NCBI GenBank assembly: GCA_964534955.1
Contig: CAZHRR010000002.1
Coordinates: 11,069 to 75,068 of the forward strand
DNA: 64,000 nt
From: an uncultured bacterium
GTDB lineage: Bacteria > Fidelibacterota > Marinisomatia > Marinisomatales > UBA2128
Direction of reading: 5' to 3'
Numbering within the stretch: the stretch's first letter is position 1; the number at the start of each line of letters is the position of its first letter. Below are positions 1 through 37,626 of this stretch, in pieces. The translations under genes were made by a program, and so were the position numbers. The notes below the pieces were generated by a model, which had not been told where the DNA came from, ran no database searches, and saw only the letters and a list, made by a program, of their open reading frames with translations.

Positions 1-611
1 CCAGCGTGAACCACATGGGTTACGTGCTGCTGGGAATGGCCGCTGTTATTGCGGCAGGAGCCAAGAATGGCGGTAACGTTATGGCTGCTGAAGCGGGGAT
101 GAATGGCGCCGTTCTGCAGATGTTCAATCACGGCACGATTACAGCCATGCTCTTTATCCTGGTGGGTGTCATCTATGATAGAGCACACCATAGGAACTTA
201 GACGGCTTTGGAGGTCTTGGTGTCAGGATGCCGGTATACACGGGTGTTGTAGCACTGGCATTCTTTGCCGGTCTTGGACTTCCCGGGCTTTCAGGATTTA
301 TCAGTGAGGCCATGTGCTTTATTGGAGCATTCCCTGTGTTCAAGACTATTGTCATCATTTCAACTCTCGGAATTCTTTTGAATGCATCCTACTTCCTGTG
401 GGCATTTCAGAGGATGTTCCTCGGCAAATTGAACGAGAAGTATGTTGATCTTCCTGAAATCAATAAGCGAGAGCTGTTCACACTGGTACCTCTGGCTGTA
501 TTGGTAATCTTATTAGGAATATATCCTGCCCCTGTGTTGGATGTCATGAAAGTAACGTTAGGACACTTGATTCAAATAGTGCAGCAGAGCCCGCTGATGG
601 CGGCATTTTAA
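1..611 (+). CDS. nuoM: NADH-quinone oxidoreductase subunit M, C-terminal part (5' end outside window)
   Basis: ORF is open to the window start. The polytopic hydrophobic sequence has ND4/NuoM-type C-terminal helices (FNHGTITAMLFILVGVIYDRAHHR, GLPGLSGFISE). A NuoN gene follows directly. Confidence 0.8.
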   Translation, partial: SVNHMGYVLLGMAAVIAAGAKNGGNVMAAEAGMNGAVLQMFNHGTITAMLFILVGVIYDRAHHRNLDGFGGLGVRMPVYTGVVALAFFAGLGLPGLSGFISEAMCFIGAFPVFKTIVIISTLGILLNASYFLWAFQRMFLGKLNEKYVDLPEINKRELFTLVPLAVLVILLGIYPAPVLDVMKVTLGHLIQIVQQSPLMAAF

Positions 612-620
612 TACGAGAAT

Positions 621-2099
621 ATGGATAATTTTCAGAGCATAAAACTCTTCATTCCTGAGCTTGTACTCGTAGGCAGTGTACTGCTGGGGATAATCGCCGA
701 TCTATTCTACCGACGTGAGCATACATTTAAGGTAGGATACTGGATCATCGGGGGACTGACAGTTGCAGCTTTAGCACTTTACTTGACGCCTGCCGGTGAA
801 TCAATTACTATGTTCATGGGAACCATTGTTGTGGATCCTTTTGCCCGGATGTTCAAGTTCATTTTCCTTCTCTCTACGGTTGTAGTTATCCTTATGTCTC
901 AGAAGACAGACGAACTGAAATCAATAAGGACTGGTGAGTATTATCTTCTTATGGTCGTGATAACATTGGGAATGTTCCTCATGGCGTCCAGTGTTGATCT
1001 GATAATGATTTACCTTTCCATAGAAGTGGTTAGTATTGTCTCATTCATCCTTGCCGGATATTTGAAAACTCAGGTTCGCTCTACTGAAGCATCCTTAAAA
1101 TATGTTATCTACGGCGCCTTTTCATCCGGTATCATGCTCTACGGTTTTTCTCTGCTTTTCGGTCTTACCGGAACCACAAAGCTCTTCGAGATTCGAGAAA
1201 GCATAGCTGTTTTGGATGGAGGGACGCTGACTCTAACCGTTTCCATCATCATGATTATGGCGGGTTTCGGTTACAAAATTTCTGCAGTTCCATTCCACTT
1301 CTGGACGCCGGATGTATACGAAGGGGCTCCTACGCCTATTACCGCCTTTCTGTCCGTAGGACCTAAAGCGGCAGGTTTTGCGCTGCTCATTCGTGTTTTT
1401 AATTCGGTCTTCACCGGAGCAGATGCCTTGGCGGCATCCGTCTGGCAGACACTTGAAGGACTTCCGTGGCAGGAAGTGATGGCTGCGCTGGCTGCCATTA
1501 CGATGACATTAGGCAACGTTCTTGCGATTCAGCAGTCCAATGTGAAGCGGCTTCTGGCATACTCCAGCATCGCTCACGCTGGCTACATTCTGATGGGCAT
1601 TCCGGTTCTCTCTCAAGGCGGAATCTATGCTATAATGTTTTATGTGGTAGTTTATTTACTGATGCAATTAGGGGCATTTTTTGTGGTAATTGCCATAAAA
1701 AATAAATTTGGTACCGAAGAGATAGGGGAGTATGGCGGATTAGGTTTTAAGGCTCCTTACCTCGGAGTAACCATGGCCATTTTCCTCTTTTCCCTGACTG
1801 GGCTGCCGCCAACTGCCGGCTTTATTGGAAAGTTCTACCTCTTCTCAGCAGTAATAGATGCAAGGATGTATTGGCTGGCTATCGTGGGGGCACTTAACAG
1901 CGTTATCTCGCTTTACTATTACATGCGCATTGTTAAGATGATGTACCTTCAGGGAGAACGAGAAGCGGAGCTCTATCTTCCTCCGAAATTTCAGACTTCT
2001 CTATTGGCCGTACTTGCTGTTCCTACTGTCATTTTTGGTGTCTACTGGGCACCCATTGCGGATTGGATTCGCAATTCCTTGGTCTTCTTCCTGCCATAG
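621..2099 (+). CDS. nuoN: NADH-quinone oxidoreductase subunit N (first set)
   Basis: 492-aa polytopic protein with the ND2/NuoN core (AVPFHFWTPDVYEGAPTPITAFLSVGPKAAGF, KRLLAYSSIAHAGY). Starts 9 nt after the nuoM' stop. Confidence 0.9.
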   Translation: MDNFQSIKLFIPELVLVGSVLLGIIADLFYRREHTFKVGYWIIGGLTVAALALYLTPAGESITMFMGTIVVDPFARMFKFIFLLSTVVVILMSQKTDELKSIRTGEYYLLMVVITLGMFLMASSVDLIMIYLSIEVVSIVSFILAGYLKTQVRSTEASLKYVIYGAFSSGIMLYGFSLLFGLTGTTKLFEIRESIAVLDGGTLTLTVSIIMIMAGFGYKISAVPFHFWTPDVYEGAPTPITAFLSVGPKAAGFALLIRVFNSVFTGADALAASVWQTLEGLPWQEVMAALAAITMTLGNVLAIQQSNVKRLLAYSSIAHAGYILMGIPVLSQGGIYAIMFYVVVYLLMQLGAFFVVIAIKNKFGTEEIGEYGGLGFKAPYLGVTMAIFLFSLTGLPPTAGFIGKFYLFSAVIDARMYWLAIVGALNSVISLYYYMRIVKMMYLQGEREAELYLPPKFQTSLLAVLAVPTVIFGVYWAPIADWIRNSLVFFLP

Positions 2100-2549: not shown

Positions 2550-2554
2550 TTCTT

Positions 2555-2610
2555 CACAGACTCCTTTTGGTGGACACAGAGAACGCCGAGATTCACAGAG
2601 TACCACAGAG
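2555..2610. repeat. Short heptamer repeat cluster: CACAGAC once, then CACAGAG three times
   Basis: Copies start at 2555, 2575, 2594 and 2604, immediately after the nuoA stop codon. Confidence 0.5.
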
Positions 2611-2809
2611 GTTTTTAACGTTGAAACATGTAGTCATGTCACGGACTTCATTTGATAAAACAGCTACAATCCTGTAGGGATTACATGTCTGTAAAAAACG
2701 ATAAGGAACAAACCAAAACCCCTTAGGATGTTTTTTACGAAGTACGTATGAGACACAGGATCTTCATAGCGAATAATGAAGGCTAAATTCCATAGAATAA
2801 ATAAGGTTA

Positions 2810-2881
2810 ATGGTAAAGATTAAGTCAAACATACTGACAACAACAGTCGAAGCAACCTTTGCTTTAACAAAAAAACTATGA
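2810..2881 (+). pseudogene. Relic of a nuoB 5' end (23 codons, then a stop)
   Basis: ATG at 2810 encodes [19 protein letters not shown]..., whereas the true NuoB at 3857 begins [18 protein letters not shown]. Eleven consecutive codons ([11 protein letters not shown]) are identical at the protein level but differ at 9 synonymous third positions. Confidence 0.6.
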
Positions 2882-3053
2882 TAATTGGAATAAGTAGAAA
2901 ATGATAAAACTGATTATGGGAATGATTGGCATATAACTCTTATGAAAAAGTTGGGAATAGCCATCTTTTTTTCATTAAAGCATTGGATTCTGACAAAGCT
3001 ATTGAAAGGGATACAGATAACCAGCCATTCACAGAGTATTATCGAAGCTGAAA

Positions 3054-3109
3054 ACTTGAGGTGCCAAAACGGCACCTTAAATTGAAGGATGCAAATTGCG
3101 ACCTCAAGT
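3054..3109 (+). other. Nested inverted repeats upstream of the ORF6N gene
   Basis: The outer 9-bp pair is ACTTGAGGT (3054-3062) / ACCTCAAGT (3101-3109). The inner 7-bp pair is AGGTGCC (3059-3065) / GGCACCT (3071-3077). Confidence 0.5.
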
Positions 3110-3131
3110 CCTAAAAAAGGAGATTTTGTGA

Positions 3132-3658
3132 ATGGACAGTAAAATAAAAAATGAAATTTTGGCACCAGTTGAAAAGGTTGCCGATAAAATACTGTTGATT
3201 CGAGGACAAAAAGTAATGTTGGATAGGGATTTGGCAGGATTGTATGGTGTAGAAACGAAAATATTAAAAAGAGCCGTGAGAAGAAATCTGGAAAGGTTTC
3301 CGGCTGACTTCATGTTTGAGCTAAATAAAGAAGAACAATCTGCCTTAAGGTACCAATTTGTCTCCTTAAAAAAAGGTGAGCATACAAAGTATTTATCATT
3401 TGCTTTTAATGAGCAAGGTGTAGCTATGCTTTCTTCTGTAAAAGGGCAATTGAAGTCAATATTTTAATCATGAGAGCCTTTGTTCGCATGAAGGAACTTT
3501 TGTATTCAGATAAGAATCTGGCATTGAAAGTAGAAAAATTGGAAAGAGAAATGGAAAAACAGGGAAGATCATTACAGCAAGTTATTCGTATTGTAGATCA
3601 ATTATTGGAGCAGCCCAAACCGAAGCCAATGATAATAGGATTTAAAGTGGATGAATGA
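3132..3658 (+). pseudogene. ORF6N-domain DNA-binding protein gene, frameshifted
   Basis: The N-terminal ORF ([54 protein letters not shown]) stops at 3467. The conserved continuation [13 protein letters not shown] is readable only in another frame from ~3447 and runs on as ORF 3470-3658. A short indel that is not a multiple of 3 must lie between SSV and AIEVN. Confidence 0.75.
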
Positions 3659-3856
3659 CCAAGAAACAACCATAACTATTCCTGTGAAAATAAGATGGAA
3701 AAATAGTCGCAATGGAGGGTAATTAACTTCTCTATTGTCATCAATAAACTCAACACGAAAAGGACAACGAAAGAAGTTGGCTGAAAAAAATGATAAATCC
3801 GTCCCAATGGGACTCCTTACTTCGGAACAATCCGCATTCTTCAATCCGAAATCCTA

Positions 3857-4342
3857 ATGGATAATAAATCCAACATACTCACTACCACTGTAGAGGCTGC
3901 CGTAAACTGGGGACGCAAAAACTCCCTTTGGCCCATGCCGTTTGGAACTGCCTGCTGCGGTATCGAACTGATGGCAGTACTGGCCTCGCGTTCTGACATA
4001 GCCCGGTTCGGGGCAGAAGCGATTCGCTTCTCACCCCGGCAGTCCGACCTCCTTGTTGTTGCCGGCCGAATTACCATTAAGATGATGCCCGTACTGCAGC
4101 GCATCTACGAGCAGATGCCGGAACCTAAGTGGGTCATCTCCATGGGCGCCTGTGCCTCCAGCGGCGGAGTGTTCGATACGTACAGTGTTATCCAGGGTGT
4201 AGACCAATTCATACCGGTGGATGTCTATATCCCGGGCTGCCCGCCAAGACCGGAGGGTTTGCTTGATGGTCTTATGAAGATTCAGAATCTGGTGGAAAAG
4301 GAGAAGTTTTCTGATTATTCCAGTTGGAGTAAAAATAGATGA
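3857..4342 (+). CDS. nuoB: NADH-quinone oxidoreductase subunit B
   Basis: PSST-type motifs: [24 protein letters not shown]. Confidence 0.95.
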
Positions 4343-6050: not shown

Positions 6051-6213
6051 GTCCTAAAATGAGACGAGAAAAAGTATTAATGAGAGAAATATTTAGTTCT
6101 ATGACCTCCCCTATTTCCCCTCCTTGGCAAGCCTGCCCGACGGTCAGGCGGGGAGGGGAAGAAAAGGGTGGTCCATGTTTTTCTTTTAGTATCGAACGAA
6201 AATATTTTTTAGT

Positions 6214-7991: not shown

Positions 7992-9610
7992 TGCCTCTTC
8001 TCAGAATTGACAATAGAGAAATTGAAGTTGCTGCCGGGACGACTGTCCTGGATGCTGCCCTGGAGAATGGCATAGAGATCCCTCACTACTGCTACCATCC
8101 CGTTCTGGAGATTGTGAGCAGCTGCCGGATGTGTATGGTGGAAGTGGAAGGGATGACGAAACTTCAGGTGGCATGCAACACACGGGTAGGGAATGTGCCT
8201 CCGGATAAGAAAGTAGACGGATTTGATATGGTTGTTCGTACTAAGACCGAGACTGTACAAAAAGCGAGAGAGAACACACTGGAGTTTTTGCTCCTCAATC
8301 ATCCTCTGGATTGTCCAGTCTGTGACCAAGCGGGGGAGTGTTTTCTGCAGGATTACTCGTTCCGCTACGGCCGGGCTCACAGCCGTTTTGAGGATGAGAA
8401 GCGAGTCCGTCCGGCTGAGGACTTGGGCGCTGGAGTGGTCATTAATCAGAACCGCTGTATCATGTGTACTCGCTGTGTTCGTTTCACGAGAGAAATTTCC
8501 GGTACCGGCGAGTTGTTTGTCCAACATCGGGGCAACAATACGAAAATTTCTGCACTAGAAGACAATCCTCTCGACAATCTCCTCGCCGGGAACGTTACGG
8601 ACATATGTCCCGTAGGAGCGCTGCTGAGTAAAGATTACATACACCGCAACCGTATCTGGAATCTCAACCGGCAGCCGTCTGTTTGTCTGGAATGCAGTGT
8701 GGGCTGTAACGCGGATATCTTTCACCAGAACGGAGAGGTTTTCCGTATCTCAGCCCGGGAGAATCTCGAGGTGAACGGATACTTCATCTGCGATTTGGGC
8801 CGCTACAGTTACCACAATTACGAGAATCTCAAGCGAGTGACATCTCCCATGATTCGCAATGGCGAGAAGTGGCAGGAGATAAGCTGGGAAGGAGCTCTCA
8901 AAGAAATTTTTGAGAAGTTGGGCCGGAAGAAAAAGGGCTCAAAAAACTTGATATCCGGCATTGCCTCACCTTTCCACACCAGCGAAACCAATTTCATGTT
9001 TGCCCGGCTTATGAATAACGTTTTTAAAGAACGCGCTGTTATCGGAATGATCCCTTTTGATAAGGAGGATGAGATTCGTTTCCCCGCTGGTTTTCGCATC
9101 AGTGGTGACCGTTCGCCTAATCGACGGGGAGCAGAGCAAGTTTTTCCGGTAATGTCTGGCGACATTTTCAGCGAGATTAGGAAACATAAAATCAAGCTTA
9201 TGTATGCACTGGACGATGGTATTGAGCGTGAGTTGTCGCAAGAGTGGAGGGATCTTATCCGTAATCTCGATTTCCTCGTCGTGCAGACTTACGCCATGAC
9301 GCCTTTGGCGGAGCGAGCTCATCTTCTGCTTCCCGGAGCCGCACCGCTGGAGAGGGAAGGGACAGTCACAAATGATATGGGACAGATTCAATGGCTCCGT
9401 CCGGCACTGCCGCTGCAGGGCTCAAGCCGTCCTGACTGGCAGATTATCATGGAAGTGATAAACACTGTAGGGAAGCGTGAGCTGCACTATGCTCATGTAA
9501 GCGAAGTATTGGCGGAGATGGGTGAGCGGATTCCGGCCTATAAAGGTGTTACATTCTTCAAGCTGGGTGAGTTCGGGATGAGCTCCAACGGACAGATGGA
9601 GAAAAGCTGA
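7991..9610 (+). CDS. nuoG: NADH-quinone oxidoreductase subunit G
   Basis: 75-kDa subunit with an N-terminal 2Fe-2S region (CYHP..SCRMCMVEV), HPLDCPVCDQAGEC and CIMCTRCVRF. Confidence 0.9.
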   Translation: MPLLRIDNREIEVAAGTTVLDAALENGIEIPHYCYHPVLEIVSSCRMCMVEVEGMTKLQVACNTRVGNVPPDKKVDGFDMVVRTKTETVQKARENTLEFLLLNHPLDCPVCDQAGECFLQDYSFRYGRAHSRFEDEKRVRPAEDLGAGVVINQNRCIMCTRCVRFTREISGTGELFVQHRGNNTKISALEDNPLDNLLAGNVTDICPVGALLSKDYIHRNRIWNLNRQPSVCLECSVGCNADIFHQNGEVFRISARENLEVNGYFICDLGRYSYHNYENLKRVTSPMIRNGEKWQEISWEGALKEIFEKLGRKKKGSKNLISGIASPFHTSETNFMFARLMNNVFKERAVIGMIPFDKEDEIRFPAGFRISGDRSPNRRGAEQVFPVMSGDIFSEIRKHKIKLMYALDDGIERELSQEWRDLIRNLDFLVVQTYAMTPLAERAHLLLPGAAPLEREGTVTNDMGQIQWLRPALPLQGSSRPDWQIIMEVINTVGKRELHYAHVSEVLAEMGERIPAYKGVTFFKLGEFGMSSNGQMEKS

Positions 9611-10638
9611 TGGACGGCTTGGCTATTATTGTAATGATTGTAAAAGTGCTGATTGTCTTTGCCGGAGTCATAACGGCTGTCATGGCTATGACCTTGGCGG
9701 AGCGTCGGGTATCGGCGTTTATGCAGGATCGGCTCGGTCCTAATCGTGTGGGTCCTAAAGGGATCCTCCAACCCATCGCTGACGGCATAAAGTTCCTCAT
9801 GAAAGAGGACATCATTCCCTCCGAAGCGGTAAAGCCCATCTACATTCTTGCCCCAGCCATGCTGATTATTCCTGCCTTGATGACCTTTGCCGTCATACCG
9901 TTCGGTCAGACCGTCACTCTGTTCGGAAGGGAGATCGCTCTGCAGGTAGCGAATGTGAACATCGGAATTCTTTACATCTTTGCACTCACAAGCGTAGGAG
10001 TATACGGCTTGGTGCTGGCGGGATGGTCATCCAACAGCAAGTATCCGCTCCTGGGTGGACTCAGATCCTCAGCCCAATTAATCAGCTATGAACTGGCTAT
10101 GGGATTGGCAGCGATAAGCGTCATCATGCTGACCGGTTCACTGGAACTTAACCACATCGTTTCCGATCAGCAGGGGGGACTCTTTTCCTGGTACATCTGC
10201 CGGCAGCCGCTGGCGTTCATCATTTTCTTGGTGGCGGTCTTTGCTGAGACGAACCGGCTCCCGTTTGATATGACAGAAGCGGAGCAGGAGCTGGTGGGGG
10301 GTTACCACACGGAATACAGCAGCATGAAGTTCAGCATGTTCTTCATGGCGGAGTATGCAAACATGGTTACCGCTGCCGCTCTGACGGTGACACTCTTTTT
10401 CGGCGGTTGGGATGTTCCACTGGTGAATGAAGCTGTCCTAGGGATCTGGGGCGGGATTCTATCGGTAGTAGCATTTGTAGTGAAAACTGCACTCTTTCTG
10501 TTTCTGTTTATTTGGGTGCGGTGGACCTTCCCGCGTTTCCGGTATGATCAGCTTATGAGTCTGGGGTGGAAAGTGCTGCTGCCGCTGGCACTTCTGAATA
10601 TAATCATAACAGGCGCAATTATGACACTAACGGCTTAA
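9610..10638 (+). CDS. nuoH: NADH-quinone oxidoreductase subunit H
   Basis: ND1 motifs: ERRVSAFMQDRLGPNRVGP, EAEQELVGGYHTEYS. Confidence 0.95.
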   Translation: MDGLAIIVMIVKVLIVFAGVITAVMAMTLAERRVSAFMQDRLGPNRVGPKGILQPIADGIKFLMKEDIIPSEAVKPIYILAPAMLIIPALMTFAVIPFGQTVTLFGREIALQVANVNIGILYIFALTSVGVYGLVLAGWSSNSKYPLLGGLRSSAQLISYELAMGLAAISVIMLTGSLELNHIVSDQQGGLFSWYICRQPLAFIIFLVAVFAETNRLPFDMTEAEQELVGGYHTEYSSMKFSMFFMAEYANMVTAAALTVTLFFGGWDVPLVNEAVLGIWGGILSVVAFVVKTALFLFLFIWVRWTFPRFRYDQLMSLGWKVLLPLALLNIIITGAIMTLTA

Positions 10639-10674
10639 GATGAAAAATTTGCCACCAAGACACGAAGACAAGAA

Positions 10675-10730
10675 TAATTATGTAAAACGTAATTATGTAA
10701 TGGAGCACTATTTACATATTTACATAATTA
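10675..10730. repeat. AT-rich compound palindrome in the nuoH-nuoI spacer
   Basis: AATTATGTAA occurs twice in direct orientation (10676-10685, 10691-10700). It is followed by the inverted copies TTACATA (10712-10718) and TTACATAATT (10720-10729). Confidence 0.7.
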
Positions 10731-10780
10731 TCCGCAGGATGCCGTGCACATATTTAAGTTTATGGTAAAATAAAGTAAAC

Positions 10781-11275
10781 ATGGCGACGATAATAAAATC
10801 ATACGAACCGACTTTCTGGGACCGCCTCTACATCCCTGCACTCTTGAAAGGGATGATGGTGACTTTCCGCCATCTCTTCAAGAAGAAGGTGACCGTTCAA
10901 TATCCTGACGAAAAGCATATTCCACAAGAAGGTTACCGGGGACTCCATCGCCTGAACAAATATGAGGACGGCCGCATCCGCTGTGTGGCGTGCGAAATGT
11001 GTGCTGCGGCTTGTCCGTCTCAATGTATCCACATTGTCCCTGATGCTTCACCATGGGAGGAAGGGAAAGAACGCTACCCGGTGAGGTTCAACATTGACCT
11101 CCTAAGATGCATCTATTGCGGTTTTTGTGAAATAGCGTGCCCGGAAGAAGCCATTGAACTGACGGAAATCTATGATTTTGCCGATTACACTCGAGAGTCA
11201 TTCTGGATAGATAAGGAAGGTTTGCTGGAAGTTTATGAAATGACGAAGGACCGTAACTACTATGCTGATGAGTAG
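10781..11275 (+). CDS. nuoI: NADH-quinone oxidoreductase subunit I
   Basis: Two 4Fe-4S ferredoxin motifs: CVACEMCAAACP and CIYCGFCEIACP. Confidence 0.95.
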   Translation: MATIIKSYEPTFWDRLYIPALLKGMMVTFRHLFKKKVTVQYPDEKHIPQEGYRGLHRLNKYEDGRIRCVACEMCAAACPSQCIHIVPDASPWEEGKERYPVRFNIDLLRCIYCGFCEIACPEEAIELTEIYDFADYTRESFWIDKEGLLEVYEMTKDRNYYADE

Positions 11276-11342
11276 AGGAGCTTAGGAGCAGAGAAGATGA
11301 GGAGTAGGGGAGAAAGGGATAATTAGATGAAGAGCTACACCG

Positions 11343-11613
11343 CGAGCCCGTAAACGAGCACGCCTGCCTGTTCGTAGTGGAACGTAGACTGGCTAAAATC
11401 GAAGAAAGAACGCTGAAGCGTCCTGTCTGGGAGACAGCCCCATTTATGGGGGTTTATTTGATTATAACGTCGGTATTTTTACCCCGTGGAATGCGACAGA
11501 AGAACATATTCTACAGGGGTACACTGTCGCTTTGAAAGGTTTAAGCAGAAATTAACAGAAGATCATAATATGAAATTGTTACGACAAAATAACCATCACG
11601 AGCCCGTAAACGA
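11343..11613. repeat. Insert bounded by a perfect 15-bp direct repeat (CGAGCCCGTAAACGA)
   Basis: Copies lie at 11343-11357 and 11599-11613. The second copy abuts the nuoJ ATG. The 241-bp interior carries GCCTGCCTGTTCG and several hairpins. Confidence 0.7.
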
Positions 11614-12114
11614 ATGATGCCCAGCATACTATTCTACATCGCCGCTGCCGTCATGCTCGCTTCCGCTTTGGCGGTAGTGCTGAGCCGGAATGCGGTATAC
11701 AGCGCCATTCTGCTGGTGCTGACCTTTTTCTCATTGGCCGTGATGTACCTGCTTCTGGAAGCGTACTTTCTGGCAGTGCTGGAGGTGCTGGTCTATGCCG
11801 GTGCCATCATGGTGCTGTTCCTGTTTGTCATCATGCTGCTGAATACGACACGAGAGGAGGCACTGCCTAAGCTGATGCAGCTTCAAAGGGTGTCATCTCT
11901 TTTCTTGATTGTTCTCTTCATCTTTGGAATTTTACTGCTGATTGTTGGCAGTACCTCCGAACTTCATCAAGCTGATGGAATATCCACATCAGGCTCAGCC
12001 AGAGCACTCGGGACAGCCCTGTTTACTGACTATCTCTTGCCGTTCGAAGCGGCTTCCCTGCTCCTGCTGGTTGCTTTGATTGGAACCGTCTATCTGGCTA
12101 AGAGGAAAGTGTAA
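11614..12114 (+). CDS. nuoJ: NADH-quinone oxidoreductase subunit J
   Basis: 166-aa ND6-type membrane protein ([20 protein letters not shown]) in the syntenic position. Confidence 0.85.
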
Positions 12115-12419
12115 TGGCCGTCCCGCTTGAACATGTGATAGTCCTGAGCGGCGTCCTCTTTGCTGTGGGAGTTCTGGGCGTCCTTTTCCGGCGGAATGCT
12201 CTAGTGATTTTCATGTCCATTGAGCTAATGCTGAATGCCGTCAACCTGGCGCTGGTTGGCTTCTCCCGCTATTACAATAGCGTTGATGGACAAGTCTTTG
12301 TCTTCCTGGTGATGACACTGGCTGCTGCGGAAGTGGCTGTGGGATTGGCCATCATTGTAGCGCTATTTCGTAATAAGCAGACCGTGAATATTGATGAAAT
12401 CAACCTGATGAAAGGGTAG
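12114..12419 (+). CDS. nuoK: NADH-quinone oxidoreductase subunit K
   Basis: 101-aa ND4L-type protein ([24 protein letters not shown]). Confidence 0.9.
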
Positions 12420-12420
12420 G

Positions 12421-14304
12421 ATGGACAACGCACTCTGGCTCATACCGTTTCTCCCCTTCGCCGGCTTCCTGCTGAATGGGCTTCTCGGCAAGAAGCTGAG
12501 CGAATCGCTATCCGGTGTGATTGCGTCCGCAACGGTTGGCGTCAGTTTTGTCATAGGCTTGCTGAGTCTTAACGCCTACATGGAGAAACACGAGCCGCTT
12601 CATCAGGTGATGTTTACATGGCTGCCCCTCGGTTCCTTCGATGTCACCGTCGCCTACACACTGGATGCTCTTTCGCTGGTGATGGTGCTGGTGGTTACGG
12701 GAGTGGGTTTCCTCATTCACGTATATTCCATTGGCTACATGAGAGGTGACCCCGGCATCCAACGCTATTTTGCCTACCTGAACCTGTTTATCTTCATGAT
12801 GCTCAATCTTGTTATGGCAGATAACCTGCTGCTTCTATTCCTGGGCTGGGAAGGAGTGGGACTCTGCTCGTATCTGCTCATCGGTTACTGGTTTGAAGAT
12901 CCAGCCAAGGCGGCGGCGGGGAAGAAGGCATTTGTAGTGAACAGGATTGGCGATTTTGGCTTCCTTCTCGGGATGATTCTAATTTTGGTTAATATAGGTT
13001 CCCTGACTTTTGGTGATGTACTCCTACCCGAGACAATTGGCAGTCTTGATACTGGACTGGTGACAGCGATTACACTTTTGCTTTTTCTCGGTGCTGTAGG
13101 TAAATCTGCACAGATTCCCCTTTTCGTATGGCTGCCGGACGCCATGGCCGGTCCTACGCCGGTGAGCGCTCTCATTCACGCTGCTACAATGGTGACAGCC
13201 GGTGTCTATCTGGTAGCCCGTATGGGAGTCCTGTTTGCTGCTTCGACGATAGCTCTCTCTGTGGTGGCTGTGATTGGTGTACTGACCGCCTTCTTCGCTG
13301 CTACTATGGCCATCTATGAGAACGACATCAAGAAAGTTCTGGCGTATTCTACCATTAGTCAGCTCGGCTACATGTTTCTTGCAGCAGGTGTGGGAGCTTA
13401 CGGCGCTGCCATCTTCCACCTCATGACTCACGCCTTCTTTAAGGGACTTCTATTCCTCGGCGCAGGAAGCGTCATCCACAGCATGAGCGGAGAGCAGGAT
13501 ATGCGGCGCATGGGTGGACTAAAGATCAAGATGCCGCAGACGTACTGGACCATGCTGGCCGGTGTGGCGGCTATTTCGGGACTGCCGCTCCTTTCAGGCT
13601 TTTTCTCGAAAGACGAAATTTTGTGGCACTCCTACAGTTCTCAGAGTGGAGGCGATTTTATCTTCATTGTGGGACTGCTTACCGCAATCCTGACAGCATT
13701 CTACATGTTCCGGCTCTTTTTCCTGACTTTCCACGGTAACAGCCGCTGGCATAAGAATGTAATTCCACACGAGTCTCCGCCAGTAATGACAGTACCGTTG
13801 ATCATTCTGGCTGTTTTTTCTGTGGCAGGCGGCTGGATAGGAATCCCCGAAGTGCTGGGTGGAGAAAACAGTTTCCACCGTTTTCTCTCTGAAACAGTTC
13901 ACGATGCCGTTGGGCACCATCCGCCTAACTTGCTCCTGTCGGAGCTTGCTGCCATAGCTCTTTCCATCGCCAGCGCTCTGGCGGGACTCTATTTTGCATT
14001 CCGTCGATACGGAACCGGGAAGGTGGATGTGGTGCCTAAGGGGTTGCAGCGCCTGATAGCGAAGAAATACTACGTGGACGAGATTTACAATGCAGCCTTA
14101 GTACAGCCCATCCGGCGGGGGAGCGAATCGCTATGGAAAGGAATTGACATCCGCATTATTGACGGTATTGTGAACGGATTGGGATCAACGGCTTTGAGGA
14201 TCAGCGGCATCATTCGCCGAGTGCAGACCGGCGTGATACAGAACTATGCTGCCGTCATATTCCTGGGCGTGATTCTAATCATATTCTACATCTATCTGAA
14301 ATGA
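12421..14304 (+). CDS. nuoL: NADH-quinone oxidoreductase subunit L
   Basis: ND5 motifs: WLPDAMAGPTPVSALIHAATMVTAGVY, KKVLAYSTISQLGYM. Confidence 0.95.
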   Translation: MDNALWLIPFLPFAGFLLNGLLGKKLSESLSGVIASATVGVSFVIGLLSLNAYMEKHEPLHQVMFTWLPLGSFDVTVAYTLDALSLVMVLVVTGVGFLIHVYSIGYMRGDPGIQRYFAYLNLFIFMMLNLVMADNLLLLFLGWEGVGLCSYLLIGYWFEDPAKAAAGKKAFVVNRIGDFGFLLGMILILVNIGSLTFGDVLLPETIGSLDTGLVTAITLLLFLGAVGKSAQIPLFVWLPDAMAGPTPVSALIHAATMVTAGVYLVARMGVLFAASTIALSVVAVIGVLTAFFAATMAIYENDIKKVLAYSTISQLGYMFLAAGVGAYGAAIFHLMTHAFFKGLLFLGAGSVIHSMSGEQDMRRMGGLKIKMPQTYWTMLAGVAAISGLPLLSGFFSKDEILWHSYSSQSGGDFIFIVGLLTAILTAFYMFRLFFLTFHGNSRWHKNVIPHESPPVMTVPLIILAVFSVAGGWIGIPEVLGGENSFHRFLSETVHDAVGHHPPNLLLSELAAIALSIASALAGLYFAFRRYGTGKVDVVPKGLQRLIAKKYYVDEIYNAALVQPIRRGSESLWKGIDIRIIDGIVNGLGSTALRISGIIRRVQTGVIQNYAAVIFLGVILIIFYIYLK

Positions 14305-15851
14305 ACTGGTTGAACGAACATATTCTCACCGTGCTGATTCTACTGCCTCTGGTGGGTGTGGGACTACTCGTTGCGATACAATCTTTCGGTAACGGTTTAG
14401 TCAGGAGAGGAGCGCTATTTATCACATTATTGGAGTTTCTCCTGTCGCTGATTCTATTCACCGGCTTCAAGGCAACTGCTGCCTTTCAGTTCGAAGAACA
14501 GGTTTCGTGGATTCCTGCTTGGGGGGTTAGCTACTTTGTCGGTGTGGATGGTATTTCCCTCTTCCTGATTCTGCTTACCACATTCCTCATGCCCATTTCT
14601 GTCCTTGCATCATGGAAGTCAGTGGAGAAAAGTGTCACCGGTTTCATGGTATCGCTATTGGTTATGGAGAGCGCTATGGTAGGTGTTTTTGCATCTCTCG
14701 ACTTGTTCTTCTTCTACATTTTCTGGGAGGCGATGCTGATTCCCATGTACTTCCTCATCGGTGTCTGGGGTTCCGGCAATCGTATTTATGCTGCCATCAA
14801 GTTTGTTTTGTTTACAATGGTGGGATCCCTCTTGATGCTGGTAGGCATTATCTATCTCTACAGTCAAACTTCGGCGCAGCTGGGGGCGGCTTCCCTGGCC
14901 TACGAAGACATCAGTCGTCTGATTCTCTCGTCGGGAACTCAGTATTGGCTCTTCCTGGCTTTCGCCCTCAGCTTCGCCATCAAGATTCCCCTCTTCCCGT
15001 TCCACACGTGGCTGCCCGACGCTCACACTGAAGCGCCTACAGCCGGCTCCATAATTCTGGCCGGGGTTCTGCTGAAGATGGGCGGGTACGGTTTCCTCCG
15101 CTTCTGTGTACCGCTCTTCCCGCTGGGAATGGAGGAGTTTATCCCGCTGATTATTGCTCTGGCGGTTGTGGGAATTATCTACGGAGCCCTCATGGCGCTG
15201 GTACAGCCCGACGTGAAGCGGCTGGTTGCATTTTCCAGTGTAAGTCATCTGGGCTTCGTGGTGCTGGGCATCTTTGCACTCACATCGCGCAGTGTAACCG
15301 GCAGCGTCATTCAGATGGTAAACCACGGTTTGGCTACGGGAGCTCTCTTTTTGTTGGTGGGAATGCTTTATGAGCGACGACATACACGGATGATTACCGA
15401 TTTCGGCGGACTGGCACGATCACTGCCTCATTATTCTGCATTGTTCATGATTGTAGTACTGGCGTCTGTGGGTCTGCCGGGTCTGAACAGCTTCGTAGGA
15501 GAATTTCTCATATTGTCCGGTTCGTATGAGCCTCATCCGGCTGCAGTAGTTATCTCTGCTTTGGGTGTTATCCTGGCAGCGGTCTATCTGCTCTGGATGG
15601 TGGAGCGCGTTTTCTTCGGACCATTAGAAGAAGAAAACAGTGGGCTAAGTGATCTCATCCGTCGTGAGTGGCTGGCTGTCGTTCCCATGATTGTGATGAT
15701 GGTGTGGCTGGGTGTCTATCCCAAACCGTTCCTCGACAGGATAGAGCCATCCGTAGATAAACTGGTTAATAAGTACAGAGAAGCAATGGTGGAGTCTGAA
15801 ATAACTCCAATGGCCTATTTTGAAGATGACTTCGGGGAGGTACTTGAGTGA
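14301..15851 (+). CDS. nuoM: NADH-quinone oxidoreductase subunit M
   Basis: ND4 motifs: FPFHTWLPDAHTEAPTAGSIILAGVLLKMGGYG, KRLVAFSSVSHLGF. Confidence 0.95.
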   Translation: MNWLNEHILTVLILLPLVGVGLLVAIQSFGNGLVRRGALFITLLEFLLSLILFTGFKATAAFQFEEQVSWIPAWGVSYFVGVDGISLFLILLTTFLMPISVLASWKSVEKSVTGFMVSLLVMESAMVGVFASLDLFFFYIFWEAMLIPMYFLIGVWGSGNRIYAAIKFVLFTMVGSLLMLVGIIYLYSQTSAQLGAASLAYEDISRLILSSGTQYWLFLAFALSFAIKIPLFPFHTWLPDAHTEAPTAGSIILAGVLLKMGGYGFLRFCVPLFPLGMEEFIPLIIALAVVGIIYGALMALVQPDVKRLVAFSSVSHLGFVVLGIFALTSRSVTGSVIQMVNHGLATGALFLLVGMLYERRHTRMITDFGGLARSLPHYSALFMIVVLASVGLPGLNSFVGEFLILSGSYEPHPAAVVISALGVILAAVYLLWMVERVFFGPLEEENSGLSDLIRREWLAVVPMIVMMVWLGVYPKPFLDRIEPSVDKLVNKYREAMVESEITPMAYFEDDFGEVLE

Positions 15852-17347
15852 AGAGACTGATCCTGGTATTACTGATTATATCCATAGTCCCCGCTCTCAG
15901 TTGGGCGGAGGAAGAACATCATGATTCTCAGATCGATCAACATGAGCAGTCTTATGTAGAAGAGAATGTGCACCATTCTCCACTTCCCGGAGAAGAATTA
16001 GGATTGCCCTGGGCTTTTCCCTTTGCTGGGATTCTCCTCTCTATCGCTATTTTCCCTCTGGTAGCACCCCAGTTTTGGCATCACAACTTTGGGAAGGTGT
16101 CGACTTTATGGGCATTGGTATTGATTATTCCCATGCTGATCGAGTTTGGTTTTGGAATCGTTACTTATGAACTGTTCCACACGATGTTCTTGGAATATTT
16201 CCCCTTCATTATTCTGCTGCTGGCTCTCTTTACTATTTCCGGCGGGATCCGTCTCACCGGTACCTTGGTCGGGACTCCCATATTGAATACCGGTATTATC
16301 TTTGTGGGGACAGTCCTGGCAAGCTGGATGGGGACAACAGGCGCTGCCATGCTGATGATTCGGCCGCTGTTGAGGGCCAATGCTCAGCGGAAGCACAAGG
16401 TTCACGTAATAGTCTTTTTCATCTTCCTTGTGGCCAATATTGGCGGTTCCCTTACTCCGTTAGGAGACCCGCCCCTTTTTCTTGGTTTTTTAAAAGGGGT
16501 CGATTTCTTCTGGACAACCGGCGCCATGTTGGTCCCAATGATATTTGTGGTAACGCTGCTGATTTTCATTTTCTATTTTCTCGATTCCTATTTCTTCAAG
16601 AAAGAGGTAGTTCCTGATCAGATAATCACTCCCGACGAGAAGAAACTGGGCATTGAGGGTTCATTCAACTTTCTTCTGCTTCTAGGTGTCATCGGTTCAG
16701 TACTGCTAAGCGGATTCTGGCGGCCGGGGATTACGATACCACTTTATCACCTGATACATAATGGACACACATTCAAACTTGAGATGGAACTGCAAAACCT
16801 GGCCAGGGACTTACTATTGCTAACTCTGGCTTATGCAAGCTGGAAACTGACGTCAATGAAAATCCGGGAAGACAATGATTTCTCCTGGTTCCCAATCCAA
16901 GAAGTGGGCAAGTTGTTTGCCGGTATTTTTGTCACTATTATCCCTGCCATTGCCATCCTCCGGGCAGGTGAGCAGGGAGCCCTGAAGAGTGTCATCGAAT
17001 CGGTCTCATCTGGTGGTAACCCAGTCAATTATATGTATTTCTGGGCTACAGGAATTCTCTCCAGTTTCCTCGACAATGCACCAACTTATCTGGTATTCTT
17101 CAACACGGCAGGCGGTAATGCTGTAGAGCTTATGACAACTCATCACAACACACTGTTGGCCATTTCTGCCGGAGCTGTTTTCATGGGAGCAAATACTTAC
17201 ATCGGCAACGCTCCCAACTTCATGGTGAAGTCTATCGCCGAGCAGAGCGGAATCAAAATGCCCAGCTTCTTCGGTTTCATGCTGCGTTACTCCATCCCTA
17301 TCCTGATTCCTATCTTCATTTTGGTATCACTGATATTCTTTGCGTGA
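15848..17347 (+). CDS. ArsB/NhaD-superfamily ion transporter (NhaD-like Na+/H+ antiporter candidate)
   Basis: 499-aa polytopic protein with a signal-like N-terminus and an acidic/His-rich stretch. It contains LTPLGDPPLFLGFLKG and FLDNAPTYLVFF. The GTG start overlaps the nuoM stop (GTGA), and its own stop lies 4 nt before the nuoN ATG. Confidence 0.6.
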   Translation: MKRLILVLLIISIVPALSWAEEEHHDSQIDQHEQSYVEENVHHSPLPGEELGLPWAFPFAGILLSIAIFPLVAPQFWHHNFGKVSTLWALVLIIPMLIEFGFGIVTYELFHTMFLEYFPFIILLLALFTISGGIRLTGTLVGTPILNTGIIFVGTVLASWMGTTGAAMLMIRPLLRANAQRKHKVHVIVFFIFLVANIGGSLTPLGDPPLFLGFLKGVDFFWTTGAMLVPMIFVVTLLIFIFYFLDSYFFKKEVVPDQIITPDEKKLGIEGSFNFLLLLGVIGSVLLSGFWRPGITIPLYHLIHNGHTFKLEMELQNLARDLLLLTLAYASWKLTSMKIREDNDFSWFPIQEVGKLFAGIFVTIIPAIAILRAGEQGALKSVIESVSSGGNPVNYMYFWATGILSSFLDNAPTYLVFFNTAGGNAVELMTTHHNTLLAISAGAVFMGANTYIGNAPNFMVKSIAEQSGIKMPSFFGFMLRYSIPILIPIFILVSLIFFA

Positions 17348-17351
17348 GATT

Positions 17352-18797
17352 ATGGACTTCAGTCAATACTTCACATCCGCTGATCTCGCCGGTATCGCTC
17401 CGGAAATAATCCTGACGGTAACCGCACTGTTTGTGCTGACGCTGGAAATGGCGAGACTGAGTCGCCCAGGGATAATGTTGCTCGTAGCGGCAATTGGTAT
17501 CGTTCTGGCTGGGGGCGCTCTGGTACAGACTGGAGGTGAAGAACGCGTCCTATTTGGCGGAATGCTGCGGCTTAACCGTTTTTCCGTTTTCCTCGACTTC
17601 CTTTATCTGGCAGTGGGATTAGCGACGCTGATTCTATCACAAGGATATCTGGAGAAGAAGGGGAGTGAGTCCCGTGGGGAATATCCGGCTCTCATACTTT
17701 TCGCCGTTATCGGGATGATGCTCATGACTCAAGCTAACGACTTGGTGATTGTTTTCCTTGGACTGGAGCTTCTTTCCCTGTCGCTCTATGTGCTGGTGGG
17801 CTTCCTGCGGCACAATCTCTACAGCAACGAGTCCGGGTTGAAGTACCTCCTGCTGGGCGCTTTCGCCACCGGATTCTTCCTCTTTGGCGCCGCCTTGACC
17901 TACGGAGCTACGGGGACAACGAACTTTGATGGAATTGCCTCGGCTATCAGTTCGGGAGCTATTCTATCCGATGTATTTCTCTCCCTTGGAATTGGCTTAC
18001 TGCTCATCGGATTTGCCTTTAAGGTAGCTCTAGCGCCGTTCCACATGTGGTCGCCGGATGTATATCAGGGAGCACCCACAACGGTGACAGCATTTCTCTG
18101 CACAGCGCCCAAGGCGGCCGGCTTCGGAGCCCTGCTAAAGGTTTTTATGACGGCTTTCCCTGAGCTTCATGACGAATGGCAGATTCTACTCTGGATCTTG
18201 GCCGCACTGACCATGACTGTAGGTAACATCTCTGCACTGGTTCAGTCCAATGTGAAACGGATGTTAGCCTTTTCCAGTATCTCCCACGCCGGATATTTAG
18301 CAATGGGAGTGCTGGTGCTGGACAGCATCAGCGTGAGAGCAATACTCTTTTATCTGGCGATTTATTCCGCCATGAACCTGGGTGCCTTTGCTATCATTGC
18401 CGTGGCAGAGAGGGAGGAACAGGGTGTAGCATTCGAGGACTACCGGGGACTTGCCTCCAGGCACCCGTGGCTCTCAGCAGCTATGGCTCTCTTCATGATC
18501 TCGCTGGCAGGTTTTCCGCCTACGGCCGGGTTCGCCGCCAAGTACGGACTCTTTTCCGCTGTAGTGGCGAAAGGATACATCTGGCTGGTAATCATTGCTG
18601 TACTTAATACGTTGGTTTCGGTCTATTACTATCTAAGGCTGACGGTGAATATGTACATGCGGGAGGAGGTAGAAGTCTTGCGTCCAGCTACCGGTATTTT
18701 AACTGTGGGACTAATTGTACTTCTGGTTGCGGTGGTACTCCTGTTTGGGATTGTACCTGGATTTCTTCTTGACTTTACTGTGATAGCAGCGATTTAA
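17352..18797 (+). CDS. nuoN: NADH-quinone oxidoreductase subunit N (second set)
   Basis: ND2 core (APFHMWSPDVYQGAPTTVTAF, KRMLAFSSISHAGY). I prefer the ATG at 17352 (MDFSQYF, parallel to MDNFQS of the first NuoN) over the upstream TTG at 17340. Confidence 0.9.
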   Translation: MDFSQYFTSADLAGIAPEIILTVTALFVLTLEMARLSRPGIMLLVAAIGIVLAGGALVQTGGEERVLFGGMLRLNRFSVFLDFLYLAVGLATLILSQGYLEKKGSESRGEYPALILFAVIGMMLMTQANDLVIVFLGLELLSLSLYVLVGFLRHNLYSNESGLKYLLLGAFATGFFLFGAALTYGATGTTNFDGIASAISSGAILSDVFLSLGIGLLLIGFAFKVALAPFHMWSPDVYQGAPTTVTAFLCTAPKAAGFGALLKVFMTAFPELHDEWQILLWILAALTMTVGNISALVQSNVKRMLAFSSISHAGYLAMGVLVLDSISVRAILFYLAIYSAMNLGAFAIIAVAEREEQGVAFEDYRGLASRHPWLSAAMALFMISLAGFPPTAGFAAKYGLFSAVVAKGYIWLVIIAVLNTLVSVYYYLRLTVNMYMREEVEVLRPATGILTVGLIVLLVAVVLLFGIVPGFLLDFTVIAAI

Positions 18798-22347: not shown

Positions 22348-22824
22348 CACGAAAACCTTGGAACTTTGTATGAAAAACCTGACAGGTGGACTTGCTCCTG
22401 TCAGATTGAAAGAACTTCTTTCGCCATTTTCTTTGGCGCAAAGAAAACGGCTGCTCCAAAGGAGCTCCTACGGAGCAAAAGAAACAGCCGCCCGCCTGTC
22501 CGCCCGTCCAAGCCGTTCGGACGGGAATGACGTAGTCGGGCAGGCTGTGAGAAAATTCAACGGTTTTTCGACATCTTTCGGGAATAAATTAAACTCACCT
22601 CCTATCGTCGGTTCAGACAGTAATTTATTCTGATCCTCAAGATACCATAAACCTAGTGTCGAATTTTCTCAAGGCGGCGAAATACAAAAAACAATATATC
22701 AAAACCGTCTACCCGTCCGTAATGAATTTATCACTCATCTATCTGTCGTAGCGACAGCGCAGACAGATAGTGTGCTTGATAATCGTAGAGTAAAAGAAGA
22801 TTACACGAAAACCTTGGAACTTTG
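22348..22824. repeat. Insert bounded by a perfect 21-bp direct repeat (CACGAAAACCTTGGAACTTTG)
   Basis: Copies lie at 22348-22368 and 22804-22824. Looser similarity extends leftward (AATACGTAGATGA vs AATCGTAGAGTAA). The interior is packed with hairpins and GC-rich motifs. Confidence 0.7.
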
Positions 22825-37321: not shown

Positions 37322-37626
37322 AAGGCTTTGAAAAACCTACTGCACAAATTAAAAAAGAGTAAAATTCGCCTGTCCACAGGGCACACACAGTGTCCTCCGT
37401 ACAGCCTCCTTCGTAGATCCTGCGGACTTTTCGTTGGAAAACTCGTCCATAGCGTTGCTATTGACTGCATTTTCCCGCCTGAATGGCCCGTCCGAACGGC
37501 AGGGCCGGGCGGGCATTGTCGGGCAGGCCGTCTTAATCAGACCTGTCTGCGTTCCACTCCGAACAGGCAGGCAAATTTTTCTTCTTTTTTCTTCACACAT
37601 AAGATTTTGCAAAGCCTTCTTATAGA
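37316..37626. mobile_element. MITE-like element bounded by inverted repeats
   Basis: AGAAGGCTTTG (37320-37330) pairs perfectly with CAAAGCCTTCT (37610-37620), and flanking TTAT/TATA bases pair partially. The interior carries CCCGTCCGAACGGC, GTCGGGCAGGC and CGAACAGGCAGGC. The left end overlaps the receptor stop codon. Confidence 0.4.

Follow-up and report, generated by a model that had tools for sequence, protein, structure and literature searches.

A foreign ORF6N-containing segment between nuoA and nuoB of a Marinimicrobia-like complex I operon, with a probable import of the nuoB start and the displaced native start retained as a relic

The stretch of DNA analysed here, the window, comprises 64,000 nucleotides of contig CAZHRR010000002.1 and carries a complex I (nuo) operon in which nuoA and nuoB, normally adjacent, are separated by 1307 bp (positions 2550-3856). 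The closest genome loci to this operon are those of Candidatus Marinimicrobia UBA7301 (86% NuoB identity) and Fidelibacterota (75%), and the host is a Marinimicrobia-like organism. A sequence-only reading of the same DNA had drawn attention to this spacer, describing within it a 23-codon relic of the nuoB start and a frameshifted ORF6N-domain gene, and had attributed the arrangement either to an element that integrates into the 5′ end of a gene and brings a replacement end, or to recombination with a second nuoB. The GC (guanine plus cytosine) content of the spacer is 32-38%, compared with 43-57% for its flanks. An independent 64-kb contig from the Joint Genome Institute (L165), which has ~95% DNA identity to the window, has the identical layout, and pieces of the spacer are also covered by Logan contigs of other samples and runs. 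The L165 layout, together with the Logan contigs from several runs, rules out an assembly artefact. The Logan contigs L176-L183, considered as a possible third lineage with the insert, all proved to belong to the L165 lineage (99.6-99.8%).

The spacing between the two genes is exceptional. Among ~100 other nuoB loci from genomes and metagenomes, nuoA and nuoB either overlap or are separated by up to ~120 bp, with the single exception of L092. This locus (L092 positions 1328-2674), from an unrelated organism of high GC content (NuoB 79% identical), has 1326 bp between nuoA and nuoB with a 406-amino-acid open reading frame (ORF), and is an independent interruption of the same junction by an unrelated gene. 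The empty site that had been proposed as a check was found in the nearest insert-free clade (P0123-P0140; loci L168-L174; 94-95% NuoB identity), hereafter the sister clade, in which nuoA and nuoB abut or overlap; inside the clade formed by the window and L165 itself, no empty site was found. No relative had the same spacer lacking the relic. Comparison of the spacer with the 86-nt native spacers of more distant relatives gave nothing above shuffled controls. A NuoB protein starting with MDNKSN occurs only in P0121 (window lineage) and P0122 (L165 lineage). The features of the interrupted junction, all on the + strand, are as follows.

2181-2549, +: nuoA, 122 amino acids, intact (ORF list; Pfam PF00507, E = 7e-35)
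2544-2551, +: left copy of the 8-nt direct repeat GAATAATT, spanning the nuoA stop codon
2552-2794, +: older inserted spacer (sp1), absent from the sister clade and flanked by the GAATAATT repeat
2810-2854, +: homologous part of the relic, the probable displaced native nuoB 5′ end (start codon plus 14 codons; 11/11 amino acids as in NuoB)
2855-2881, +: non-homologous tail of the relic, TFALTKKL followed by a stop codon; similarity to nuoB stops sharply after the GC of an Ala codon
2855-3131, +: apparently imported non-coding leader (sp2), with 5 differences from L165 in 250 nt
3132-3658, +: ORF6N-domain gene (PF10543), a pseudogene in the window, split into ORFs 3132-3467 and 3470-3658
3659-3856, +: apparently imported spacer (sp3), the present upstream region of nuoB; 4.5% of positions differ from L165, indels counted
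3857-3904, +: probable imported replacement for the nuoB 5′ end, codons 1-16; 13/13 codons differ from the sister clade, then 19/26 are identical
3857-4342, +: nuoB, functional and apparently chimeric, 161 amino acids (intact ORF; PF01058, E = 6.5e-29), with nuoC-nuoN downstream

The relic ORF (2810-2881) comprises 23 codons, and its residues 5-15 are identical to residues 4-14 of NuoB (11/11). At the nucleotide level, relic positions 2822-2854 and nuoB positions 3866-3898 share 24 of 33 nt; nine of the eleven codons differ, in each case by a synonymous change of the third position, and we recovered the same codon pairs as the sequence-only reading. The nucleotide similarity also takes in TAATGG at both start codons, and the relic in the window retains its start codon and a Shine-Dalgarno-like AAGG. 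The longest exact peptide word shared between spacer and NuoB was 11 residues, whereas 300 shuffled versions of the spacer never gave more than 6, and when the 55 genes of the window were scanned, nuoB alone had a copy of its own end nearby. The shuffles and the gene scan together rule out a chance match of the relic to NuoB. Neutral decay of a target duplication was also ruled out, since all nine changes fall on third positions (p = 1.4e-6), which implies, as had been proposed, that both copies diverged while they were coding. The relic carries the clade-specific residues VEA and, in L165, also the DDIKSN start of relatives. Codons 2-3 differ nonsynonymously between the two lineages, encoding VK (GTAAAG) in the window versus DD (GACGAT) in L165; codons 4-23 are identical in both. 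We found no further remnants of nuoA or nuoB within the spacer, and no second nuoB paralogue within the window that could have served as the source.

Comparison with the sister clade, represented by L168, distinguishes the two copies. The relic matches L168 at 28 of 33 nt and 6 of 11 codons, and the body of nuoB matches it at 104 of 120 nt over the next 40 codons, with a gene-wide codon identity of 51-54%. The working 5′ end of nuoB, by comparison, matches at only 22 of 33 nt, and all 13 codons that specify the same amino acid (K4-V16) differ, where ~51% codon identity would be expected (p ~ 8e-5). In the 26 codons that follow, 19 are identical to the sister clade. This run of 13 differing codons is the longest in seven nuo genes (~1,900 codons), the runner-up being 8. 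Moreover, the end of nuoA, when joined to the relic across the 8-nt repeat GAATAATT, aligns to the contiguous nuoA/nuoB junction of the sister clade with one 4-nt gap. The relic of L165 begins MDDIKSN, and more distant relatives begin MN[HY]DDIKSN. Since the relic shows normal divergence, the working end differs at 13 of 13 codons, and the nuoA-relic join fits the junction of the sister clade, these alignments indicate that the relic is the native nuoB start and that the working start, up to ~3904, is an import. Thus, the earlier suggestion that one copy derived from a different nuoB allele holds, and it is the working copy to which it appears to apply. NuoB is now one residue shorter at its N-terminus than the native form (MDNK... 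versus MDDIK...).

Although the 1.3 kb of DNA had been treated as a single insert, and the foreign nature of most of it is borne out below, the spacer is composite, consisting of an older piece of ~250 bp, the relic of the native start, and a younger foreign segment of ~1.05 kb (2855-~3904). The older piece is flanked by the direct repeat GAATAATT, the right copy of which lies just ahead of the relic start codon and is intact in L165 and split in the window (2795-2800 and 2807-2808). The split is due to a 6-nt insertion, ATAAGG, which thereby creates the Shine-Dalgarno-like AAGG in front of the relic ATG. Beyond this flanking repeat, we found neither inverted repeats in the older piece nor a second copy of it in the window. 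Three copies of CACAGAG lie in its invariant first 85 nt (2550-2634); the larger block 2511-2634 (124 nt) shows no differences from L165 despite ~15% neutral divergence. The window contains seven CACAGAG copies, of which four are in the nuoA-nuoB spacer, with three crowded into 36 nt on the + strand (2575-2610); the 12-nt sequence ATTCACAGAGTA is repeated without change at 2591 and 3027. The invariant block could be a protein-binding site or a second recombination tract.

The two parts of the spacer differ markedly in their divergence from L165. At fourfold-degenerate sites of nuoN-nuoH, the window and L165 differ at 199 of 1334 positions (14.9%). Region 2635-2818 has 24 substitutions in 184 nt (13%) plus several indels, which is neutral-like and old, whereas 2819-3856 has 23 in 1038 (2.2%) plus three indels and is young (p = 1.5e-29 relative to fourfold sites and p = 3e-9 relative to the adjacent spacer). 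The young tract takes in non-coding DNA and the pseudogene. Its left edge lies between 2818 and 2882, overlapping the homology of the relic to nuoB, and to its right the first nuoB difference from L165 is at 3928. Since the segment has diverged by 2.2% and neutral host sites by 14.9%, these counts show that the ~1-kb segment was exchanged recently between the window and L165 lineages, after their split. The leader sp2 has nested palindromes at 3053-3109, just upstream of the ORF6N gene (inverted repeats I14 and I19), and the fourth CACAGAG at 3030, and sp3 has a hairpin at 3801-3813. The spacer contains no Rfam family, one sub-threshold small nucleolar RNA match being dismissed, the fold of 2545-2745 is unremarkable (z = -0.7), and nothing resembling a terminator is predicted on the + strand of the spacer; transcriptional read-through from nuoA into nuoB is plausible. 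Logan contigs L001, L083, L084 and L176-L183, from several independent runs, have shared breakpoints within the spacer at window positions ~2778-2786 and ~3498, which suggests population polymorphism or k-mers in common with other ORF6N copies of those communities.

The gene carried by the young segment is, as had been noted, a frameshifted ORF6N gene. Its first part (3132-3467) matches Pfam PF10543 with E = 1.5e-31 and 109 bits (cut-off 27.8). A 10-bp deletion (GTTTTGCGGA) after 3437 breaks the frame in the window and in the strain contig L001, relative to the intact 178-amino-acid orthologue of L165 (P0001), which is 94% identical to the frame-repaired window sequence. P0001 matches the PADLOC PDC-S05 model PDLC04856 with E = 1.2e-55 over profile positions 3-169 of 177, and also matches PHROG 'anti-repressor' families and Pfam ORF6N; ORF6N-domain proteins of this kind are KilA-N-like and Rha-like. 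A representative of PDC-S05 expressed in E. coli lowers the plating of T7 and T5 ~1000-fold and that of T4 ~10-fold (PMC12881386). By analogy, resting on this full-length profile match to a candidate defence family, the ORF6N gene is a candidate anti-phage gene of the PDC-S05 type, although the assayed representative is described with a Virulence_RhuM domain and possibly belongs to another subfamily, and the window copy is a pseudogene with no surrounding defence island. Between the window and L165, the gene has 7 nonsynonymous and 5 synonymous differences (counted from the listed positions), so it has evolved without strong constraint. Contig L001, which has the 10-bp deletion too and elsewhere shows 99.8% identity to the window, has L165 alleles at 3344, 3361, 3363 and 3386, four sites within a 43-nt stretch of the ORF6N gene; this cluster reflects either further decay of the window copy after the deletion or a short conversion tract.

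Homologues of the ORF6N protein (61-77% identity, the nearest being 77%) are encoded by solitary genes between unrelated housekeeping genes. Low GC content and the solitary occurrence of these homologues in unrelated contexts indicate that the segment is foreign. Beside the other ORF6N genes at L166, L167 and L184 there are no duplicated gene ends, and thus no sign at these loci that ORF6N cassettes generally replace gene ends; DNA similarity to other ORF6N loci outside the coding sequence was not found. No close ORF6N relative was present in viral contigs, phage and plasmid records matching the ORF6N domain only, and no other copy of the insert exists within the window. The possibility that the ORF6N protein is a hidden recombinase or nuclease was considered and rejected, as its AlphaFold model (mean predicted local distance difference test score, pLDDT, 73) gave no PDB match with E < 0.5; the weak top matches, which are not significant, were winged-helix or MerR-type DNA binders.

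How the segment came to replace the start of nuoB is suggested by its two junctions. On the right side, the imported codons run in frame into nuoB, with the codon identity switching at about codon 16/17, whereas on the left side the nuoB homology ends abruptly at 2854/2855. The two junctions, GCA/ACCTTT (2854/2855) and GCT/GCCGTA, share no core longer than 2 nt, and a repeat search gave no other candidate. In line with the earlier remark that no integrase remains, neither an integrase nor a transposase is encoded in the insert, which contains only the ORF6N gene and short ORFs without a Pfam match, or in the neighbourhood, which consists of nuo genes for more than 15 kb on each side. The ~1.05-kb segment does not qualify as an insertion sequence, transposon or miniature inverted-repeat transposable element (MITE), since it lacks terminal inverted repeats and a target duplication and occurs only once in the window. 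With one junction seamless in homology and the other abrupt, the arrangement fits homology-facilitated illegitimate recombination, and between the two origins offered by the sequence-only reading it is recombination that we favour, an integrase-driven element being less favoured in the light of the missing integrase and of a core of no more than 2 nt. We give a probability of roughly one half to an origin by homology-anchored illegitimate recombination, followed by spread through homologous recombination. What the comparisons show is the duplication, which of its copies is native, the empty site of relatives, the foreign composition, the recent exchange and the lack of recombinase signatures; that the event was one-sided, where its crossovers lay and that the relic served as a homology arm is what we infer.

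According to this scheme, the ancestor would have had the nuoB start right behind the nuoA stop codon, as in relatives, and the uninterrupted native allele would read ...GAATAATTAATGGACGATATTAAGTCAAACATACTGACAACAACAGTCGAAGC directly followed by GCnGTnAACTGGGG. Linear foreign DNA of low GC content would have entered from a related Marinimicrobia lineage, or from a vector bearing DNA of that lineage, carrying the ORF6N gene followed by the first ~16 codons of the donor nuoB. The donor gene would begin ATGGATAATAAATCCAACATACTCACTACCACTGTAGAGGCT, the working 5′ end being the AAATCCAACATACTCACTACCACT version. At the right end, a homologous crossover with the resident nuoB would have taken place near codon 16/17, in the highly conserved AACTGGGG.CGCAAAAACTC stretch, and at the left end illegitimate joining would have occurred just after resident codon 15, at 2854/2855. 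The outcome would be an intact nuoB whose synonymous start and upstream region are both imported, the original start codon with the 14 codons behind it being stranded ~1 kb upstream as the 23-codon relic ORF, and an ORF6N gene placed within the complex I operon in the orientation of the nuo genes. Flanked by the relic to its left and nuoB to its right, the insert would then have two homology arms, through which later homologous recombination could move or homogenise it between lineages; this would explain a later transfer whose left border falls in the relic. The 10-bp deletion would have broken the ORF6N gene afterwards, in the window lineage.

Homology-facilitated illegitimate recombination is an established route for one-sided integration (PMC3240628, PMC5361080; de Vries & Wackernagel, 2002, and Prudhomme et al., 2002, as cited in PMC5361080). 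As in the known cases, one end here is anchored by homology (in nuoB), the other is joined without homology, and no element-encoded enzyme is needed. However, such events are known from transformation or conjugation in the laboratory, and in most of them recipient DNA is deleted or replaced, whereas here 15 recipient codons are kept as a duplicate and the event is read from natural genomes alone. Several points weigh against this origin. No donor with an ORF6N gene upstream of an MDNKSN-starting nuoB was found, and no other locus has ORF6N upstream of nuoB. The scheme also needs a donor that itself had ORF6N beside nuoB, which moves the original insertion one step further back. The position of the right crossover was placed by the switch in codon identity rather than seen directly, and if the young tract were placed at random, its left edge would fall over the relic in roughly 8% of cases. 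The tract may thus be a plain product of gene conversion between two lineages, each of which carried the insert beforehand. Finally, a serine recombinase needs only a 2-nt core, so the absence of a longer core leaves room for some integrases.

The alternative that survives best, although we consider it unlikely, is a decayed integrase-driven element that targeted the 5′ end of nuoB and restored the gene with a nuoB fragment carried in its attP site, the integrase and most of its cargo having been deleted later. The classic target-restoring case is that of e14 and phage 21 at the 3′ end of icd in E. coli. The anatomy of the locus fits such an element: the target is restored with a foreign end, its native fragment lies displaced, and relatives have the empty site. 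Site-specific integration would also account for a young insert whose junctions are the same in both lineages. Integrative genetic elements that restore the target gene by an attP-borne fragment are known, and this 'attP fragment strategy' has been described for protein-coding targets (Mageeney et al., 2020; PMC7192596). In those elements, as here, foreign DNA lies in a conserved gene that is kept intact by a synonymously different homologous end, the native fragment is displaced to the other junction, and the site is uninterrupted in relatives. Here, however, the segment is only ~1 kb long with one gene, neither it nor the surrounding nuo genes supplies an integrase, and the junctions share at most 2 nt rather than an identical core, unlike those of tyrosine integrases. 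It is the 5′ end that is replaced, so that the insert supplies the start codon and upstream region, and the target lies within the complex I operon. Furthermore, positions 2819-2854, which would be host DNA if an element had integrated, show no differences between the lineages where ~5 would be expected (p = 0.003).

It is less probable still, and in our view doubtful, that the assignment of the two copies should be reversed, with the working 5′ end being native and relic codons 4-15 representing the mobile segment's own nuoB-like homology; the segment would then have been inserted between codons 3 and 4, its only contribution being a new ATG-GAT-AAT start. The low divergence does set in precisely at the fourth relic codon (2819), the two codons before it (2-3) are very different in the two lineages (GTAAAG versus GACGAT), and the closeness of the relic to L168 could reflect an L168-like former host. 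Nevertheless, this leaves unexplained the 13 of 13 synonymous differences of the working end (p ~ 8e-5), the top outlier among ~1,900 codons, and still offers neither a recombinase nor a clean core.

A more far-reaching idea, which we regard as a long shot, is that the ~1-kb ORF6N/PDC-S05 cassette is a minimal integrase-free mobile unit that carries a synonymously recoded start of its target gene. Such a cassette could be inserted by host recombination with no harm to complex I, the divergence of the repeat would hinder deletion, and transfer between lineages would use the relic and the nuoB body as arms; if this were true, single defence genes could colonise essential operons by such a route. 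Finally, a duplication of the nuoB start in place followed by divergence, or a relic retained by selection as a translated leader peptide, is very improbable: the relic does keep its start codon, the Shine-Dalgarno-like AAGG (in the window) and codons 4-23 unchanged in both lineages, but near-saturated, synonymous-only divergence would require both copies to have been under purifying selection for a long time, the relic breaks off after 15 codons, the nonsynonymous difference at codons 2-3 (VK versus DD) argues against selection on the peptide, and the invariance of the relic is common to the whole surrounding 1-kb tract, pseudogene included.

By whichever route it arose, the event is a clear but fairly ordinary trace of horizontal transfer that involves no new kind of machinery, and its outcome resembles known products of integrative elements and of homology-facilitated illegitimate recombination. 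It also bears comparison with the displaced 'orphan' gene ends in arrays of Rhs, contact-dependent inhibition (CDI) and type VI secretion system (T6SS) effectors (Kirchberger et al., 2017; PMC5361080), in which an incoming module likewise replaces the end of a resident gene and the old end persists to one side as a fragment. Those orphans, however, are 3′ toxin ends with immunity genes, and their replacement changes function, whereas here the 5′ end of a housekeeping gene is exchanged for a synonymous version and the cargo has no relation to the target gene. The locus thus provides a natural example of foreign DNA in the coding start of an essential respiratory gene without damage, the old start remaining as a dated fossil. 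It illustrates that single candidate defence genes can lodge within core operons, that such insertions can pass between ~95%-identical lineages long after these diverged, and that codon-level comparison can distinguish the native from the imported among two duplicated gene ends.

Beyond the nuoA-nuoB junction, the operon has other unusual features. The membrane-arm genes are present twice at the locus, with nuoH-I-J-K-L-M-N upstream of nuoA (window 1-2099; complete in L165, 1-6979) and a second nuoH...N set downstream of nuoG (window 9610-18797), the latter with an extra ORF of 499 amino acids (15848-17347) between the nuoM-like and nuoN-like genes. In addition, nuoD and nuoE, which overlap in L165 and in L168 of the sister clade, are parted in the window by a lineage-specific insertion of ~165 nt (6051-6213) containing a GC-rich palindrome, CCCCTCC...GGAGGGG, around GCCTGCCCGACGGTCAGGCGGG. 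With this insertion, nuoE starts at a new ATG and is not accompanied by a relic; the Logan contigs L001 and L002 both terminate inside it, at 6143. Pairs of GC-rich inverted repeats are common to distant intergenic regions of the window (11362-11392 with 37542-37572, and 22497-22525 with 37487-37515), and these may represent a family resembling repetitive extragenic palindromic (REP) sequences or MITEs, perhaps akin to the nuoD-nuoE palindrome.

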